A DNA stretch of 64,000 nt from Cyanidioschyzon merolae (taxonomy: Eukaryota), in the NCBI GenBank assembly GCA_000091205.1, contig AP006484.2, one strand, 5' to 3'. Below, piece after piece: positions 843 through 56,267 of the stretch (position 1 is its first letter; every line of letters begins with the position of its first letter). The notes under the pieces are model-generated. The model was given only the letters and a program-made list of their open reading frames with translations. It was not told the origin of the DNA and did no database searches. A program made the position numbers and the translations under genes.

Positions 843-3173
843 TCAAGGTTTCCAGCCCCAGACTTCGAGCACGACACATTCAAACTCGCCAAGGGATACC
901 TCATTCGCGGGCGCATCGAGACAGAGCGGCGGGTTATCGAAGGTTTCGCTGTACCCCGAAGTTCCGGATAGCAACGCGTCATCCAGTGAGAGCGCGAAGT
1001 GGGCGCCCCCGCCAACGGCGATGAAACGCGGTCCCGAATACTGGAAGAATGTATTCTTGCCGGTCCAGGGATAAGGTTCAACGTGTCCCTGAGCATCTGC
1101 TCGGAAGACGAAACACTCACCGGTCCCGTAGAAGGTGCTCGCGTTCGATCGCCAAGTCTCTGTGACGAAGGCCCCGAAAACATGACCAGCACGATCCCGC
1201 ACAGCAACAACGCTCTGCGAAGCGTGCTGGGTACGGTGGTAAAACGTATAGAGCGATGCCCCATGAATCGCGGTGGAGTACACGAGACACCAGACCGCGT
1301 CTCGATAGCGATGTGGCAGTGCGTTTCGTAGGGACTCGAAATGATCAGGCGAGAGCACTTGCGAGTGAAAATTCGCCGCTAATGTCACTGTGGCTGTTGC
1401 TGGAGCAGTGACAGCGGTAGTGGCGCCTGCTGGAGGCAGCGCGACCAATGACGACGACGACGTCGACGACACCACTCTTGACGTATGCATTCGAGACGAT
1501 CCCTCAGGTGCTTCTGAGCATGTATGCGCGGGATACGCAGCGACGTCGCAAGTCGATGACGTCCTCGTTCTAGCCGGACTCTCAGATGCCTCCCCGGATA
1601 CATGCGCACGGTCCATAGCCGAGTCGTGCGCTTCAGGCGCTCCGCGTGTCGCAAGAGGCGCAGACTTGTCTGCTGCGGTGCTTCTTGTCTCTAAAGCCGG
1701 CGAAGATGCCGCAGCACGCATTGCGCTCGAGTGGACGCGAGCATGGGCACTTCCATCATCGGCCGATTCCCGCTCTAATGATGGAACCGGGAAAGCGTCT
1801 GTCGTCGCTTTAGCAGCTGGCTGGCTCGGAGGCCATGCATCGACTCCACTCGCTGGGCTCCATTGGCTACTGATGTTGTCGTCGTCGTCGTCGGGAGCCG
1901 AAGCCTGCGACCATACCCACCGGCTTAGCATCCGACCAAAACTGCCCCAGAGATCATTTCCCGTTCCAGCGTCTTTCGTCGACTGCTCCGATCGGGCAAT
2001 GTCGATCGGATTTGTTGAGACATTCGCAGCCGAGGCAGCGCTGGGAGCTTGCCTCTCTTCCAGCTCATCGACGGTGCGCTGCTGGACAGTGATCTGCTCC
2101 AATAAAGCCGATATGGTCGTATTGCGGCAGAGAAACGCAAGTCTCTCCGTATCTGCTCCAGAATCCGTTTGAGCATCTGCTCGAGGTGTGCACGGCGAGC
2201 AGTCCACCTCCAGCCATGCCCATTCCGCGGGATTGATGAGCTGCTGGAAATCCTCAGCACAAGCCGGACGAATCTTCCAGCGTCTTCGAGTTGGTCCCAA
2301 TGGAAGTGTGATGTTATTCGCCTTATTGTCGTCGTCGTCGTCGGTATGAAGCGCGTCGGCTCCCAGCTGCCGCTCCAGGATGCACTGCAACACTGCAAAA
2401 GCCGACGGATTCGTGGGCGGAACAAGGTTGACAGAGCCTTCAAACGTAGCGTTGCCTACCCGAATCCAACCCACAAGGCTTTGTTGATGGCTGTTCGATG
2501 AATGATGATCCGCATGACTCGTGGCAGAACGTGCTGAGGTCGCTGGAGACGCGCTCCGGCCACTACTCTGTGGTGTGGCCGGCTGGATCGTGCACCAAGT
2601 TTCTGGACCTGCTTCTCTCACCGCGTCCTGCAAATAACGCTGGAGCAATTTTTGGAGCCGAACAATGTCAGCACGCAGGCTCTCTACTTCTCTTTCCACT
2701 AGTCTCCGACTGAAACGCATCTGGTCTACCTGGGTTCGCATCGCGGCGAGCTCCGCTTCCCAGCGATGTCTTTCCCAGGAACGACGTTGGTCGTCCATAC
2801 ATCCAGCAGCTTCTAAAGCTGCATCTGTGCGGATAACAGGTGATTGTTCGGGTGTCCGCTGCTGTTGTTTCTGCCCCACTGATACCCGCGGTTGCGTACC
2901 CGGTGGTGACAGTTGCTGGTCGGCGGAAGCGTCGGGTTGCTGCGGGTCAGGTCGAGTCCCTTTTCCTGCCTCCGAACGCGACGAGGCTTGCGGCTCCTTT
3001 CGATTATCGAGCACAAGAGCGCTCTTGCCCGAGTTCGTGTAGTTCAGGGGCGCTTGCTGCACGAAGCGGAACGGCTGTTCCAGGGAGACGCGTTCGCGCT
3101 CGTTCACAGTACCAGCAGCAGCAGCAGTTGCTGCTGCTGCTGCTGACTGCCTGGTACGTTCGTCCACATCCAT
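843..3173 (-). CDS. TLDc-domain protein (Oxr1/NCOA7-like), 776 aa. N-terminal region is low complexity and coiled coil with poly-A, poly-D and poly-Q runs. TLDc domain is C-terminal.
   Basis: Long ORF on the minus strand. The C-terminal 160 aa match the TLDc consensus (WCLVYSTAIHGASLYTFY...VFGAFVTETW...FYGTGECFVFR...WTGKNTFF...AVGGGAHFALSLDDAL...SETFDNPPL...LEVWGW). Confidence 0.8.
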   Translation of the reverse strand: MDVDERTRQSAAAAATAAAAGTVNERERVSLEQPFRFVQQAPLNYTNSGKSALVLDNRKEPQASSRSEAGKGTRPDPQQPDASADQQLSPPGTQPRVSVGQKQQQRTPEQSPVIRTDAALEAAGCMDDQRRSWERHRWEAELAAMRTQVDQMRFSRRLVEREVESLRADIVRLQKLLQRYLQDAVREAGPETWCTIQPATPQSSGRSASPATSARSATSHADHHSSNSHQQSLVGWIRVGNATFEGSVNLVPPTNPSAFAVLQCILERQLGADALHTDDDDDNKANNITLPLGPTRRRWKIRPACAEDFQQLINPAEWAWLEVDCSPCTPRADAQTDSGADTERLAFLCRNTTISALLEQITVQQRTVDELEERQAPSAASAANVSTNPIDIARSEQSTKDAGTGNDLWGSFGRMLSRWVWSQASAPDDDDDNISSQWSPASGVDAWPPSQPAAKATTDAFPVPSLERESADDGSAHARVHSSAMRAAASSPALETRSTAADKSAPLATRGAPEAHDSAMDRAHVSGEASESPARTRTSSTCDVAAYPAHTCSEAPEGSSRMHTSRVVSSTSSSSLVALPPAGATTAVTAPATATVTLAANFHSQVLSPDHFESLRNALPHRYRDAVWCLVYSTAIHGASLYTFYHRTQHASQSVVAVRDRAGHVFGAFVTETWRSNASTFYGTGECFVFRADAQGHVEPYPWTGKNTFFQYSGPRFIAVGGGAHFALSLDDALLSGTSGYSETFDNPPLCLDAPANEVSLGEFECVVLEVWGWKP
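3113..3145. repeat. 33-nt perfect palindrome (CAG)5-TTG-(CTG)5 at the 5' coding end of the TLDc gene
   Basis: Read directly in the sequence: cagcagcagcagcag ttg ctgctgctgctgctg. It can form a hairpin and encodes the Ala/Thr-rich N-terminus in the gene frame. Confidence 0.9.
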
Positions 3174-3872
3174 GAGTGGGCAGCAGAGCGCGCTTCAGCG
3201 TAACCTGCGTGGACGCTCACGGCATCCAGCTCTGTCGAGCGCTGTTTGCTCGCTGGTCACGAAACGCTCGAGCGCTTGCGCCTTACGGCGACTCGCGGGT
3301 CTCGAGCTTCGGTAGTCACTGTGATAGCGTTCAGACAAAAACCTGATGAAAAACTTGCACACCGATCTGGTCGAAGCGGAGAAGCTCAGCGGCGTTATGA
3401 GGGAGAGGAATCCCGTCTGTAAAGTCAGGTACGATGCGGATGGTGAGCCATTCTGGTCTTTCAAGTAAATTTTATTGCACCATTGCTGCAGTGTATAGCC
3501 GGAGATCGAAACCACGATGCAACGTACCGTATCGAAAACGAACAGACACGAACTTTTACATGGTAACGAGATAACAATTTCGTTCGACCTGTGCGGTAAA
3601 CGTTAGAGGGGAAAGCTTTCCGAATCGTCGAAAGTTTGCGTTCAGAGCGAAAGGTCCCTAGAACTGTACGAGTCTGCAGGGCTAGTGCTTCATGCTCTCA
3701 CAAGTGGCTGGTGCTTTGGCGAGACGTAAGCAAATCGTCCGCAACAAAGGTTATTCTGGGACTAGGAGGGGGTAGGCTGTGTCGGGGCGTCGCCCTGGTC
3801 GCAGTGGACTCCTAGTACATCGCTTCGGGCTACAGGCAGTAGGTCTGTCTCCGCAGCTTCCTGGCTCCCGGC

Positions 3873-4085
3873 ATGCTTATGTACTTCGACCCTCTGTCCG
3901 GTGAGCCACGCCACGCGGAGATGCCCGCAGTGGTATGGCAACGCCGTACAGTGTCCTTGATGCATCCGCTCCAGCGGCATAACTGCTATTACGAATGCAG
4001 CAGGGGAGGTACTCGGTGCAAGATAGAACGTATGGAACAACCAGTACATCCGAAAGGAAGTATACACAATGGGAATTGCAGCTAG
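3873..4085 (+). CDS. Small conserved ORF, family 1 copy A (70 aa), hypothetical
   Basis: The 70-aa ORF has a same-length paralogue at 20695-20907. Residues are conserved along the full length (M..DP..AVWQ..MH..QR..CS.GGTR..I.R..P..PKGS..N..C). Several codon differences are synonymous (gac/gat, cct/ccc, ggg/gga). Confidence 0.3.
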   Translation: MLMYFDPLSGEPRHAEMPAVVWQRRTVSLMHPLQRHNCYYECSRGGTRCKIERMEQPVHPKGSIHNGNCS

Positions 4086-4138
4086 GGTGCAGCATGATAG
4101 ACACTTTCCCCAAAGCCAATACCCATGCATTCCGCATC

Positions 4139-4179
4139 CTGGAATCCAAGGTCAACGTAAACGTTCTGTCATCGGCAAA
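4139..4179 (+). promoter_or_regulatory. Conserved ~40-nt motif copy A (ctggaatccaaggtcaacgtaaacgttctgtcatcggcaaa). Candidate cis-element upstream of the bromodomain gene.
   Basis: The same motif recurs at 20957-20996 and 63355-63394, each 190-480 bp upstream of a plus-strand gene and in the same orientation. Confidence 0.3.
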
Positions 4180-18438: not shown

Positions 18439-18743
18439 GTCGCCTGTCGCGCTCGTTGCTTCTGCAACGCCGTCCGTCGCAGTCGCTTCTCCGTGTTGCT
18501 TTCGAAGAACTGTCGACGCTTCACTTCCTGCAGGATGCCGGCTTTCACCACCTCCTTCTTAAACCTTCTCAGCGCACTATCGACGGGTTCTCCCGGGTTC
18601 ACGAGCACCCGAACCCGCATCTCAATTGACGTGTCACTCGCCGGTCGCTGACATGTCGGAGCACAGGTGCCGACCCCACGCCCCGCGACAAACGAATGAT
18701 AGGGCACAGCAGCTATCTTGGAAGCAGTTAACGTAACGAACAT
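18423..18743 (-). CDS. Ribosomal protein bS21, organellar (probably mitochondrial), with an N-terminal presequence
   Basis: MRVRVLVNPGEPVDSALRRFKKEVVKAGILQEVKRRQFFESNTEKRLRRTALQKQRARQ matches the bacterial S21 family. It is preceded by about 40 aa of presequence. It overlaps the UGDH stop codon by 16 nt in convergent orientation. Confidence 0.6.
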   Translation of the reverse strand: MFVTLTASKIAAVPYHSFVAGRGVGTCAPTCQRPASDTSIEMRVRVLVNPGEPVDSALRRFKKEVVKAGILQEVKRRQFFESNTEKRLRRTALQKQRARQATQRNR

Positions 18744-18917
18744 GGGTTTAATCTTTGAAAACTCGTCGCTTGTAATGCGGTGCCAACGACGAACGCTTCA
18801 GAAGTCGAAAGCAGTCGCCGTCACGGGTACAGTAGTGGCGGCGAACGCGCCTTGGACAAATTGGCTCCAAATGACGTGCAGATGCTTCCTAGGCTTTCTC
18901 GCCCGGCCACCTCCAAC

Positions 18918-20140
18918 TTATTCCAACTGTTTCTCATATAGTTCCACTTTTAATGATTGTCTAACAAAGTTCTCTCTTGTCCATTCTGAAGGTCTTCTCT
19001 CCAGCACCGCGCTTGTCTTTACATTGATAAGGGCGTTCAAGTTTCGATTTGCAAACTCCATACGGTTGTAGCCGTTGGGAGTTGTCCTCATCAGTGCAAG
19101 CAAACCTCGAACTTTCGCACTCCTTTCCATTTGCTCTACCGTCAGCGGTCCGTACTTTGCTAGTTCCTCAGGGCTCCGTTGGCACTTTTCCATCTCCTCC
19201 CTCTGAGGTGTACACCCCAGTTCATGGTGTGTATACGATGTTCGGAACTCGTCTACAGGTATTGTGGCAAAACGCCTCGGGCACTGCTTGTACGTTCTCG
19301 TCGTTGGAGCTGGAGTAGTCCCTTTTTGTGTCTTCCATCGGCCTGCTCCGTACGCTACAACGAGCCTTTGACCCTCGTCCTCCTTCGGGGCGCTCAACTG
19401 ATTGAAAAAGTTGGCGAACGCCCGCTGCTTACCGCAATACAGATTTATTCGCAAACGAGCCCACCGGGGCTTGGTATACTCCTCCCACAGCGCATCCCAA
19501 TGGGCAACACGAACTTCCATGAATTTCCGAAAAGCTGTAAAGTCCGCCCCGCGGCTCGTCACCTCGCTCAAAGCTTCCAGGTGATCCTTCATTCCTGCAT
19601 TCCATGTCTCGATTTTTTCCTCGCATTCATTATAACGGATTCGCGGTAATGTCTCTATCTTTAGAACTGAAAAAGACGCATGTCGTTCTGACGTAAGTTG
19701 CCGTCAGTACCATCTTCCCCACATTTGGGTGCTGCAATGGCTATGATATTTGTGTTCCCGGGGTCTGCGTCAACGATAAACTCGTTATCCTCTACCTACT
19801 GCGTCGCAGGATCCTCCTCCTTCTCATCTTCATGCTTCGCCGAAGGCAAAGCCGCGGGCGGAACATGGCGATCCGCCTTCAACCGCCGATAGCGTACACA
19901 CGTTGCCACTCCATCGGTTTCGATCATCCCAGTGAATGCCTTTTGTTTGCTCGCTTTCAGAAGTTTGAAACTGAAGATGTTCTTCCAGTACGTCTCCCGG
20001 TTTTCGCCGGTGAACTCCTCCCTGTTCACATCGAACTCCGGACAGATAACCCTCATGATGCCATAAAGGACTCTGGAATCGATAGTCATAAAATGTGACT
20101 TGATATTGCACATTGGAAACATGTTGCAGCGCTTACCCAT
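18918..20140 (-). pseudogene. Degenerate TnpB/Fanzor-like (RuvC-like) transposon-derived ORF in an AT-richer island. It has an in-frame TAG and a frameshift, or alternatively one roughly 112-nt intron.
   Basis: RuvC-I-like [18 protein letters not shown] immediately after the TAG at 19796. Degenerate zinc-finger position IPVDEFRTSYTHHELGCT, with Cys replaced. RuvC-III-like NRNLNALINV, with D replaced by R. Candidate intron 19797..19686 with donor GTAGGT, branch TACTGAC and acceptor CAG restores the frame between the two ORF blocks. Confidence 0.3.
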
Positions 20141-20694
20141 TACGAAAGCCTTCCGTCTCTCCCACTCTTCATTTTTTCCTCACTCAGCTTCATCTTCGCA
20201 TTGCGTTCGAGTTCTCGGTCCAGATACTCGAAATACCGCAGGATGAGATAATAGTATCTTTCCGTATCTTTTTCCAAGTATGATATCTTTTCTGCTGGAT
20301 TCGCCAGCCCCAAGTCTGCGCGATGCTCTTGTCTAACTGCACGGATCTCAGAAGCTTCATTATTTCTCCTGTGTCATGTCTTCTTGTCGACAAATTCGAT
20401 CTTTCCTTCGTTCTTACTATCGTTCGTGATGCCATTGATGATGGCCGATCTCTTTCCTCTGGAGAGAGACCTCGGTACCGTGCAAACACGGTGCGTATCA
20501 TGATATGTTTCAGGTTCACAATCACACTGAGCTTCAGGCTCATGAGGTACTGCATCGCCCCGTCACAGTTGATTCTGGGACTCGGAGCGGGTAGCCTGCG
20601 TCTTGGCGTCGAGCTGGTTCATTTGGAATCCCAGGACCTCGTTTCGTGCAGCCACATCAAGTATGTCTGTCTGCACAACTTGTAGGCTCTCAGA

Positions 20695-20907
20695 ATGATC
20701 ATCACCCCCGATCCCGTATTGAATGCATCAAGCCTCCAGCCGACGTCTGCAGCGGTATGGCAAAGCTATTTTGCCGCTGTGATGCATTGGCATCAGCGGT
20801 GTAGGCGCTACGGCGGGTGCAGCAACGGAGGTACTCGGCGCATGATACAACGTACAAAACCACCAATAGATCCGAAAGGAAGTGAAACTAATGCAACTTG
20901 CAGGTAG
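20695..20907 (+). CDS. Small conserved ORF, family 1 copy B (70 aa), hypothetical
   Basis: Paralogue of 3873-4085, with the same length and conserved residues. Confidence 0.3.
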   Translation: MIITPDPVLNASSLQPTSAAVWQSYFAAVMHWHQRCRRYGGCSNGGTRRMIQRTKPPIDPKGSETNATCR

Positions 20908-20956
20908 AGTGAAGAATAATGAGCGTTTTCATTGATTTCAATATCCATCCTGCAAA

Positions 20957-20996
20957 CTGGAATCCCAGGTCAACGCAACGATATTGTCATCGAAAG
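20957..20996 (+). promoter_or_regulatory. Conserved ~40-nt motif copy B, 170 bp upstream of the DJ-1/PfpI gene
   Basis: ctggaatcccaggtcaacgcaacgatattgtcatcgaaaga aligns with copies A and C. Confidence 0.3.
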
Positions 20997-54062: not shown

Positions 54063-56267
54063 ATGATGGCGGAGCGTTCACCAATCATCGACGCCATCGA
54101 GGATGCGCAGCGGCCGCTTGTGACCTCCGATTCCGAGATGCGTGCTCGTGACGTGTCAGCGCACGCATGCAGACAGCACGGACACGTGCTGCGGCATACG
54201 ATGCAACGTGTCCCTGCTCGTGTTGAGCTTCCCGAAATGCCGATAGGTGCGAACGACGCATTTACAGCTGCTGAAATATATATAACACCATCATCCATAT
54301 CCGAAAGCGTACCAAGTTCGTGCACATCCTGCGCGACAGCGTCAGCGTGCGACGCAGAGACGCGAAGGCTCGCCGCTATCGCGAAAAGAGGGCGCGCTAC
54401 AAGCCCCTGCGGTGAGCGCTCTTCACAGATGCTCCCGGCGGGTAGAATGCCAGCGAGTAGTGCGGCACCAGCAGCGCCCGAGACGCTCGACTCGATGCCA
54501 TCGTATCCACCCGATCCCGGTCCCGATCCACGGAGCGCTGCGAATAGCATTGGTGCTTCCACCAATGTCGCATCTCACAGCGAGCACAGCGCTTGCGGGT
54601 GCTTGGCTACAGATCAGGACACGAAACCTGAAAACCAGCGCACCACCAGTACGCGGTTCTGCATATGTCGCCAGCCGTACGACGCGCGCCGCAACGGCAT
54701 CATGGTAGCGTGCGACAACCCGACCTGCGCGTACGGCTGGTTCCACATCTCTTGTCTATTTCTGGACGTTTCACGTGTGCGGGCATCTAAGACCTTTATT
54801 TGTCGGTTCTGCTCCGGGACAGGGACGGACCTATTCACTCCAGTGCAGCGACCGAAACGCCCGCGGAGCCAGCATGGACGTCCGGCCGTCACCGATTACG
54901 CCCGCCTCCATGAGGGCGATATAGGCGGTGCCCTGCGGGGCGGCACCTGCGCCGGCGCTCTGAGCGAGGCGGCACGAGCGGCCGCTGAACGCCGGGCTCA
55001 GAGCTGGGCGAAGAACGCCACCAGCGACGCTGGCGGGCTAGCGGCGCATCTGGGGATACTCGTCTACGGCACCGGTGGCGAATTGCAGCGCATGCCCGAT
55101 GCGCCCTGTGTCGTGCTCGATCCCGACGGGCTCGACATGCACATTCCACATCGTGCTTACCATCCCGAGGAGGTCGGGCGCGAGTACGGACTTGAGCGTC
55201 ATTGCGAAGTGCTGGATGTCGCGAGCCAGAGTGAGCTGCATCCCCGCTGGAGCCTGGGGCAGTACCTGGATTACCTGGCAACCGCGCCAGCGTTACGTCA
55301 GCGGGTGCTGAACCTCATCTCCTTGGAGATATCACGAACACCGACAGGGCGAGCGTTCGTGGTGCCGGCGCTGATTCGCCGAGCGGACTGGGCGTCGCTG
55401 TATCCGGAGCCGCGCCCGCATGTTGATAAGTACTACCTTCTGAGCGGCACTGGATCGTGGACCTCGTGGCATATAGACTTTGGCGGATCGACGGTGTTCT
55501 ATCACGTGCTGCGCGGGAAGAAGCGCTTCTACATGTCACCGCCTACAGAGCGCCATCTGCAGCTCTACGAGCGGTGGCAGCGGGATCCGCAACAGGCGCT
55601 GCGTGAGCTAGACTTTGTTGAGGAGCTGAGCCCTATTGCCGTCATTGACCTCGACGCGGGAAACACGTTGTTCATTCCGGCGGGATGGCTGCATGCTGTG
55701 TACACCCCAGCGGACAGCGTTGTGCTGGGAGGCAACATTCTCCACCTGGGCGGCGTTGTCATGCAGCACCGCGTGTTCCAGATGGAGAACCGTCTACGCG
55801 TCTTACCCAAGTACCAGTTCCCGCTGTTTCGAGAGCTTCACTGGCTAGCGCTCCGACAGTATGCCCTTGCACTGCGAGAGGCGCGCACTCCCGGAGCGGT
55901 TTTCCAGACGAGTGCTGTGCACAGCGAACGCCAGCACCTGCGCTGGCTAGTGAAGCACTTGCGAGATCAGTTACATAACGCCTTGACCAGCGCGCCCGCT
56001 GAGTCTCCGAACCCAACCGAACTGCATACGCTGTTGCGGGACCGCATCGGGCTCCCCAGGAGGGTCCAGCTCGCGGACGTGCAGCGCTGGCTGGGCGTTT
56101 TGGAGGAGGCACTGGATACGGCCCACGAGCACGCACCCGAGTCGACAAAGGCCGAACGGAAGCGGACAAGGCGGTTTGAGAAACAACTCCGCCCGAGTCC
56201 CAGCGCTGACGCACTGGACGCGGCGCCCTGTCGCTCGACTCGGATTCGTTCAGAAAAGCGCGTCTGA
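54063..56267 (+). CDS. PHD-finger plus JmjC-domain histone lysine demethylase (JHDM1/KDM7-like), 734 aa
   Basis: PHD: CICRQPYDARRNGIMVACDNPTCAYGWFHISCL...CRFCSG. JmjC: YYLLSGTGSWTSWHIDFGGSTVFYHVLRGKKRFYMSPPT...NTLFIPAGWLHAVYTPADSVVLGGNILH, with Fe(II)-ligand H..D...H spacing. Confidence 0.85.
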   Translation: MMAERSPIIDAIEDAQRPLVTSDSEMRARDVSAHACRQHGHVLRHTMQRVPARVELPEMPIGANDAFTAAEIYITPSSISESVPSSCTSCATASACDAETRRLAAIAKRGRATSPCGERSSQMLPAGRMPASSAAPAAPETLDSMPSYPPDPGPDPRSAANSIGASTNVASHSEHSACGCLATDQDTKPENQRTTSTRFCICRQPYDARRNGIMVACDNPTCAYGWFHISCLFLDVSRVRASKTFICRFCSGTGTDLFTPVQRPKRPRSQHGRPAVTDYARLHEGDIGGALRGGTCAGALSEAARAAAERRAQSWAKNATSDAGGLAAHLGILVYGTGGELQRMPDAPCVVLDPDGLDMHIPHRAYHPEEVGREYGLERHCEVLDVASQSELHPRWSLGQYLDYLATAPALRQRVLNLISLEISRTPTGRAFVVPALIRRADWASLYPEPRPHVDKYYLLSGTGSWTSWHIDFGGSTVFYHVLRGKKRFYMSPPTERHLQLYERWQRDPQQALRELDFVEELSPIAVIDLDAGNTLFIPAGWLHAVYTPADSVVLGGNILHLGGVVMQHRVFQMENRLRVLPKYQFPLFRELHWLALRQYALALREARTPGAVFQTSAVHSERQHLRWLVKHLRDQLHNALTSAPAESPNPTELHTLLRDRIGLPRRVQLADVQRWLGVLEEALDTAHEHAPESTKAERKRTRRFEKQLRPSPSADALDAAPCRSTRIRSEKRV

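Follow-up and report, generated by a model that had tools for sequence, protein, structure and literature searches.

A decayed, internally deleted copy of the Fanzor1-bearing transposon CMe-1A between the DJ-1 and chloroplast S21 genes of Cyanidioschyzon merolae

What occupies the spacer between the DJ-1 gene and the gene for chloroplast ribosomal protein S21 in Cyanidioschyzon merolae? In a window of 64,000 nucleotides (the whole stretch of DNA analysed here, from contig AP006484.2 of assembly GCA_000091205.1), an initial annotation, made from the letters alone, had pointed to a fall in GC content and to two minus-strand open reading frames (ORFs) with traces of a TnpB/Fanzor-like nuclease, and had left the choice between a decayed transposon relic and an intron-containing, catalytically dead domesticated derivative. 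Fanzor1 proteins are eukaryotic homologues of TnpB, an RNA-guided nuclease of bacteria. Our analysis identifies the flagged region as a dead, internally deleted and non-autonomous copy of the Fanzor1-bearing transposon CMe-1A, without an intron, a reading to which we assign a probability of about 95%.

The compositional drop between the two genes was borne out. The GC content is 49.7% across 18794–20992, compared with 55.8% for the window as a whole and 57.6–60.1% for the flanking genes (UDP-glucose dehydrogenase/S21 and DJ-1), and a value this low occurs in only 3 of 619 sliding windows of 2.2 kb. It follows from the composition of the element itself (consensus 52%), with decay lowering it further. 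Both ORFs, 20140–19796 and 19592–18918, exist on the minus strand. Five long ORFs of the window, among them Mre11 (BAM78857), match annotated proteins of C. merolae 10D exactly, as does the S21 ORF (chloroplast ribosomal protein S21 precursor, BAM78855), which has its ATG at 18743 and the same orientation as the element ending 50 bp upstream.

CMe-1A was described as a Fanzor1-bearing element of C. merolae by Bao & Jurka (2013, Mobile DNA 4:12; PMC3627910). [quoted passage not shown] The published consensus (supplementary file 2) is 3,169 bp long and encodes an intact CMe-1 protein of 734 amino acids. The comparison of this consensus with the window defined the following features of the relic:

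18794–20992, minus strand: whole element, a decayed CMe-1A copy of 2,199 bp (blastn against the published 3,169-bp consensus)
20566–20992, minus strand: 5' non-coding segment, equivalent to consensus 1–423, the part that CMe-1A has in common with TE-N2_CMe (76% identity)
20563–20566, minus strand: junction of a 975-bp internal deletion (consensus 424–1398); the blastn segments abut in the window and lie 975 bp apart in the consensus
18921–20563, minus strand: Fanzor1 ORF remnant, consensus codons 165–712, across three reading frames (codon-wise consensus alignment; tblastn with the relatives P0008, P0002 and P0013)
18794–18920, minus strand: 3' tail, with the last 21 ancestral codons and the 3' terminus with its hairpin-forming sequence (3'-end alignment)

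Under a Repbase-type family definition, copies are assigned to CMe-1A at a nucleotide identity of at least 80% to the consensus over a long stretch, and here consensus 1399–3147 corresponds to window 20563–18817 with 85.3% identity over 1,752 columns (blastn, E = 0). A second match links consensus 1–423 to window 20992–20566 (76% identity, 427 columns, E = 6e-83). The third blastn match in the window is a solo copy of the TE-N2_CMe type, in which consensus 1–644 corresponds to 4174–3530 at 80% identity. In both window copies the 5' end lies at consensus base 1 (CGATGACA...), and the 3' end of the relic, 18794, is the point at which homology among 57 independent copies stops; both relic termini coincide with the consensus termini. 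The element is thus longer than the stretch from 18918 to 20700 that had been proposed for it. Its divergence is typical of the family, with an average of about 80% to the consensus. TE-N2_CMe, a short non-autonomous C. merolae element, corresponds to the first 423 bp of the relic, but has no ORF, and its 3' third is missing in the relic. At the protein level, the stitched translation retrieved 186 close relatives, every one from a metagenome of hot-spring type, with E values as low as 1e-202.

The consensus encodes an intact protein of 734 amino acids, whereas the relic lacks positions 424–1398 and carries many stops and frameshifts. The main lesions are listed here; L001 is a metagenome contig with an orthologous allele.

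20374–20376, minus strand: in-frame stop TGA (consensus Ser227), from the consensus alignment; TGA also in L001
19796–19798, minus strand: in-frame stop TAG (consensus Glu420, GAG), a G-to-T change; polymorphic, with T in 3 of 8 alleles and G in 5 of 8
19655–19663, minus strand: two in-frame stops, TAA 19663–19661 and TAG 19657–19655, from the consensus alignment; common to L001
19615–19617, minus strand: 1-bp deletion (consensus 2345) at about 19616, from the global alignment to the consensus
18918–18920, minus strand: in-frame stop TAA (consensus Ala713), which ends the ORF 19592–18918, from the consensus alignment; polymorphic among alleles

The 975-bp deletion took the region upstream of the ORF, the ATG (consensus 906) and codons 1–164. 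According to the global alignment, single bases are also missing at about 20461 and about 20177, and 3 bp have been inserted at about 20455. An interruption by a stop and a frameshift had been recognized correctly, but the damage goes further and amounts to five in-frame stops, three 1-bp deletions and the 975-bp deletion. As had been seen, a shift of one base separates the frames of the two ORFs. Its cause is the 1-bp deletion at about 19616; between the ORFs, the ancestral frame also contains the stops at 19663 and 19657. Beyond the TAA at 18920, the ancestral ORF extended for another 21 codons, and L001 has GAA at this position and reads on. The middle base of the TGA stop (20375) varies in two other alleles. 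The indels are all common to L001, and the alignment of this contig with the window contains no gaps.

The three RuvC motifs are still recognizable in the remnant. Positions in the family refer to the alignment of 42 relatives introduced below.

19748–19771, minus strand: RuvC-I motif DADPGNTN, with the Asp codon GAC at 19765–19763; aligns to the invariant D318/G320 and to DPG of PpFz and SpuFz
19242–19256, minus strand: RuvC-II motif VDEFR, with the Glu codon GAG at 19250–19248; aligns to the invariant E490 of the family alignment
19020–19049, minus strand: RuvC-III motif NRNLNALINV, in which the family Asp is replaced by Asn (AAC, 19043–19041); the family has NRDFNAAINI, with the Asp kept in at least 90% of the 42 relatives

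Read-through of the TAG at 19798–19796 indeed gives a peptide containing RuvC-I, and the downstream block holds both VDEFRTSYTHHELGCT and NRNLNALINV. The matching motifs of the consensus protein are GADPGNTN, VDEFRTSYTHHELGC and NRDFNAAINI. In RuvC-III the catalytic Asp has been lost, as had been noted, but to Asn (NRD to NRN) and not to Arg, the Arg being the conserved preceding residue; L001 shares the Asp-to-Asn change. For RuvC-II, the middle base of the Glu codon (19249) is C in 5 of 8 alleles, giving GCG (Ala). The sequence YTHHELGC, which had been taken for a degenerate zinc finger, is identical in the CMe-1A consensus and in near-intact relatives. At this position the CMe-1 consensus reads YTHHELGC...EKC, with no second Cys pair, and the absence of CxxC...CxxC is therefore a property of the family and not a sign of decay in the window copy. 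A zinc-finger/TNB domain (CxxC...CxxC) between RuvC-II and RuvC-III was not found in the CMe-1 consensus (Pfam Cas12f1-like_TNB, E = 0.51), and the Cas12f1-like_TNB model matches only 5 of 42 wider relatives. Having neither an intact catalytic triad nor an uninterrupted ORF, the window copy cannot produce a nuclease and is a Fanzor1 member by descent only.

The Fanzor1 nature of the family itself was addressed with the relative P0008. An exhaustive HMMER search with this protein retrieved 1,200 relatives at E ≤ 1e-3, and 42 of them were aligned (alignment A1) and used for a family profile. In this alignment D318 (in DPG) and E490 (in VDEFR) are invariant and D559 (NRD.NAA.NI) is conserved to at least 90%. 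Among solved structures, the 42-sequence profile matched Parasitella PpFz (9cf0, 5.1e-20), Spizellomyces SpuFz (8gkh, 4.5e-12) and Guillardia GtFz (9cer, 4.1e-5), with all three RuvC motifs aligned. The AlphaFold2 model of P0008 (pLDDT 80.8, pTM 0.73) was compared with the PDB using Foldseek. Fanzor1 structures took the first seven places (E = 7.5e-12 to 2e-8, with TM reaching 0.62); TnpB 8h1j (1e-2) came next, ahead of Fanzor2 and Cas12 proteins. The family profile and the predicted fold thus independently confirm the published Fanzor1 assignment of CMe-1, and the Fanzor1 homology of the family rests on these two lines together with that assignment.

Standard profiles did not reveal this relationship. 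Scans with Pfam and NCBIfam, TnpB/OrfB models included, gave no significant match for the window copy, the near-intact relatives or the consensus protein, and a single-sequence phmmer search of the PDB with the consensus protein found nothing. The Pfam label DUF8286 (PF26935), precomputed on some relatives, was not reproduced with a local Pfam copy. As the homology is visible only by family profile or structure comparison, the profile search of the conceptual translation suggested in the initial annotation returned no match and would have misled. The decayed TnpB/Fanzor-like relic proposed there is nevertheless confirmed, by 85% identity to the CMe-1A consensus over 1,752 bp and by a profile and a predicted fold that match Fanzor1.

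Compared with the Fanzor1 nucleases SpuFz1 (8GKH), PpFz (9CF0) and GtFz (9CER), the CMe-1 family has the same predicted fold (Foldseek E = 1e-11 to 2e-8, TM up to 0.62), the same RuvC D...E...D order, a similar size class (about 600–730 amino acids) and the same occurrence in multicopy mobile elements. It differs from them in a sequence identity of only 13–16% and in the missing CxxC...CxxC zinc finger between RuvC-II and RuvC-III, and the window copy, in addition, is a pseudogene. With bacterial TnpB of IS200/IS605 (ISDra2 TnpB, 8H1J) the family has the RuvC core in common (Foldseek E = 1e-2, 270 aligned columns), and CMe-1A likewise lacks terminal inverted repeats and shows no evident duplication of its target site. 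However, CMe-1A has no associated TnpA transposase, its protein is much larger and carries a eukaryote-type N-terminal extension, and the Pfam OrfB/TNB models are not significant for the family.

To place the relic in time, we turned to metagenomic alleles of the same locus. Contig L001 shows the same DJ-1/relic/S21/UGDH order and is 99.28% identical to the window over 6,501 bp. Six further contigs (L084–L089) have the same arrangement, giving seven metagenome alleles of 99.2–99.5% identity that all carry the relic; an empty (pre-insertion) site was not found among these orthologous contigs. The 975-bp deletion, with the same junction, and the three frameshifting 1-bp deletions are common to all seven and are therefore ancestral. 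Of the stops, those at 20376, 19663 and 19657 are present in L001, whereas those at 19798 and 18920 are polymorphic. The polymorphism over eight alleles is given below; the counts are small (33 codon changes in the relic), and the metagenome alleles could include slight contamination by reads from other repeat copies.

Relic ORF remnant: polymorphic sites 2.07%, pN/pS 0.73
DJ-1 coding sequence: polymorphic sites 0.65%, pN/pS 0.26
UGDH coding sequence: polymorphic sites 0.63%, pN/pS 0.17
S21 coding sequence: polymorphic sites 0.62%, 0 synonymous changes and hence no pN/pS

Over the ancestral codon positions 1, 2 and 3, the polymorphic sites of the relic are distributed 18:7:8. The relic evolves near-neutrally, as a drifting pseudogene and not as a domesticated gene. 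In terms of its history, the insertion between the DJ-1 and chloroplast S21 genes predates the divergence of the C. merolae strains sampled. The copy lost 975 bp including the start codon, subsequently gained frameshifts, stops and replacements of catalytic residues, and is now drifting almost neutrally.

Among the alternatives, the one that survives best concerns the DNA and not the protein. In Fanzor1 systems studied elsewhere, the element encodes its guide RNA at the 3' end (PMC10530073). By analogy, CMe-1A would also carry its guide RNA there, and intact CMe-1 members would be RNA-guided DNA endonucleases using a guide from the element 3' end. One possible scenario is then that the protein is dead while the 3' end of the element has been exapted, either as promoter/5' UTR of S21 or as a guide RNA usable in trans by intact members, and this we consider unlikely. 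The position of the relic fits this idea, since it has the same orientation as S21 and its end at 18794 leaves 50 bp to the S21 ATG, with a 3' terminus that is complete to the last consensus bases. Moreover, all alleles recovered carry the relic, with no empty site among them. In a clonal alga, however, an old neutral insertion would be expected to be fixed in any case, and polymorphism within the locus peaks in the 3' tail, at 7 sites in 127 bp (5.5%).

The evidence from RNA structure also speaks against exaptation. A search for a conserved terminal element or an omega-RNA-like region had been suggested in the initial annotation. Across CMe-1A copies, conservation extends through about the last 120 nt and stops abruptly (...GAAAGGCG). 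Within these 3' ends, four hand-drawn hairpins pair in 75.9% of cells, compared with 40–50% when the partners are slid. An omega-RNA-like structure drew no clear support from the other tests: hairpin covariation among the CMe-1A 3' ends was not above shuffled or slid controls, RNAalifold predicted almost no structure for them, the 3' 267 nt of the window copy fold no better than shuffled sequence (z = +1.17), and Rfam gave no match. Still less probable, in our view, is the specific form in which the relic could serve as the S21 promoter/5' UTR, or could yield a Fanzor guide RNA with sequence upstream of S21 as its 'guide', an RNA that the rare intact CMe-1 proteins could use in trans. If true, a dead RNA-guided-nuclease transposon would have become wired into an organelle-ribosome gene.

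An expressed, intron-containing and catalytically inactive domesticated Fanzor derivative, in which a 112-nt spliceosomal intron would join the two ORFs and remove the stop, can be set aside with near certainty. C. merolae is a nearly intron-free red alga, which explains why the window is otherwise free of introns. The segment concerned is the following:

19688–19799, minus strand: proposed 112-nt 'intron', in fact ancestral coding sequence of codons 420–457, including RuvC-I (consensus alignment; frame arithmetic)

The sequence signals that had suggested splicing are all present, namely GTAGGT at 19799, a branch-point-like TACTGAC and a CAG ending at 19688, and the relic is kept in 8 of 8 alleles examined. 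Nevertheless, removal of exactly 19799–19688 does not restore the frame as had been claimed, because 112 equals 1 modulo 3 where 2 modulo 3 is needed, and the cut would take RuvC-I with it. The spliced product ends after 20 codons, running into ...TTCVFFSSKDRDITANPL (also given as ...DPATQTTCVFFSSKDRDITANPL) followed by two stops. From 19799, a clean join is possible with just one GT..AG removal, which spans 233 nt and would delete still more conserved sequence. In addition, 19799–19688 is colinear as codons with the consensus and with all relatives; the G-to-T change behind the TAG stop also produced the GT of the splice site, which just 3 of the 8 orthologous alleles carry, and strains differ at the G of the 3' AG as well. 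Even after splicing, the 'ORF' would be missing 164 or more N-terminal codons and would have two additional frameshifts and a stop in its upstream part. Frame arithmetic and colinearity with the relatives thus reject the intron, which is a coincidence of coding sequence and a stop-creating mutation. Domestication is rejected by the polymorphism in the eight alleles, with a pN/pS of 0.73, no excess of changes at third codon positions and, in 5 of 8 alleles, an Ala in place of the RuvC-II Glu. Finally, chance ORFs with a chance motif resemblance in an AT-richer intergenic spacer, for which only the empty Pfam and NCBIfam scans of the conceptual translation would speak, can be dismissed given the blastn match to a published repeat consensus at E = 0 and protein relatives reaching E = 1e-202.

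Altogether, the evidence identifies the locus as an ordinary pseudogene, one decayed copy among about 150 in an element family that was already known: Bao & Jurka named it, counted its copies and placed it in Fanzor1 in 2013. Most other copies are as decayed as the one in the window, in line with the earlier description (PMC3627910): across 80 metagenome loci with relatives, counted by anchoring on protein motifs, a full-length ORF was found in only one (747 amino acids, locus L014). The case has calibration value, as a TnpB/Fanzor relic was spotted from motifs alone although standard Pfam profiles fail on the CMe-1 family. Independently of the dead window copy, C. merolae is a thermoacidophile, so that any intact CMe-1 Fanzor would be a candidate for a heat-tolerant RNA-guided nuclease.

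Besides the relic, a decayed CMe-1A copy carrying a Fanzor1 ORF remnant, the following features were located in the window or in the family:

Window 3530-4174, minus strand: second repeat copy, independent of the relic; match to CMe-1A consensus 1-644, 80%
Window 18743-18423, minus strand: ORF encoding the precursor of chloroplast ribosomal protein S21
Window equivalent 18785-18793: loose T/G-rich 3' flank pattern of many family copies (columns 308-316 of A2, the alignment of the 3' ends of family copies)
Window about 19765-19845, equivalent to consensus 2117-2196: 75-80-bp tandem unit
Window 54063-56267: JEMMA-like / H3K36-demethylase protein BAM78866
Some relatives of the relic, and 5453-5932 of L001 (an allele of the relic locus): DUF8286 (PF26935) label, from precomputed Pfam annotation

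The second repeat copy and the relic share their first base, both beginning CGATGACA..., and the match of the former to the published consensus stops at position 644 with nothing past that point. This repeat fits a solo copy of TE-N2_CMe, the short element of Bao & Jurka. Many family copies start at consensus ~648-690 (metagenome loci L029, L032, L046, L053-L055, L069, L070 and many more); such copies either have no TE-N2-like 5' part or have it directly upstream but inverted. Consequently, the CMe-1A consensus as published may combine two separate elements with a tendency to adjoin each other.

Directly upstream of the RuvC-I motif, many family copies (loci L005-L083) carry two to five tandem copies of a 75-80-bp unit coding for ...KHEEKKEA.PATQEVQDNDFVV....; the relic contains a single unit. 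This stretch is predicted to be disordered in the structure model of the relative P0008 (residues 257-304, pLDDT <50). Part of the CMe-1A Fanzor1 family bears the precomputed label DUF8286, a domain of unknown function, but a separate Pfam scan did not reproduce this match.

Elsewhere in the window, BAM78866 forms one 90%-identity cluster with a second C. merolae protein, BAM78896. Both are listed on a 457,013-bp contig, which points to a recent duplication within this chromosome.

Just past the 3' boundary, many family copies have in common a loose T/G-rich pattern (TTTGTTGTC, TTGATGGTG, TTCGTCGTT), which could reflect a target-site preference. The 3' terminus of the relic is located only 50 bp upstream of the S21 start codon (spacer 18744-18793) in the same orientation, an arrangement identical in 8/8 alleles. 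The region just upstream of S21 is thus in large part transposon-derived.
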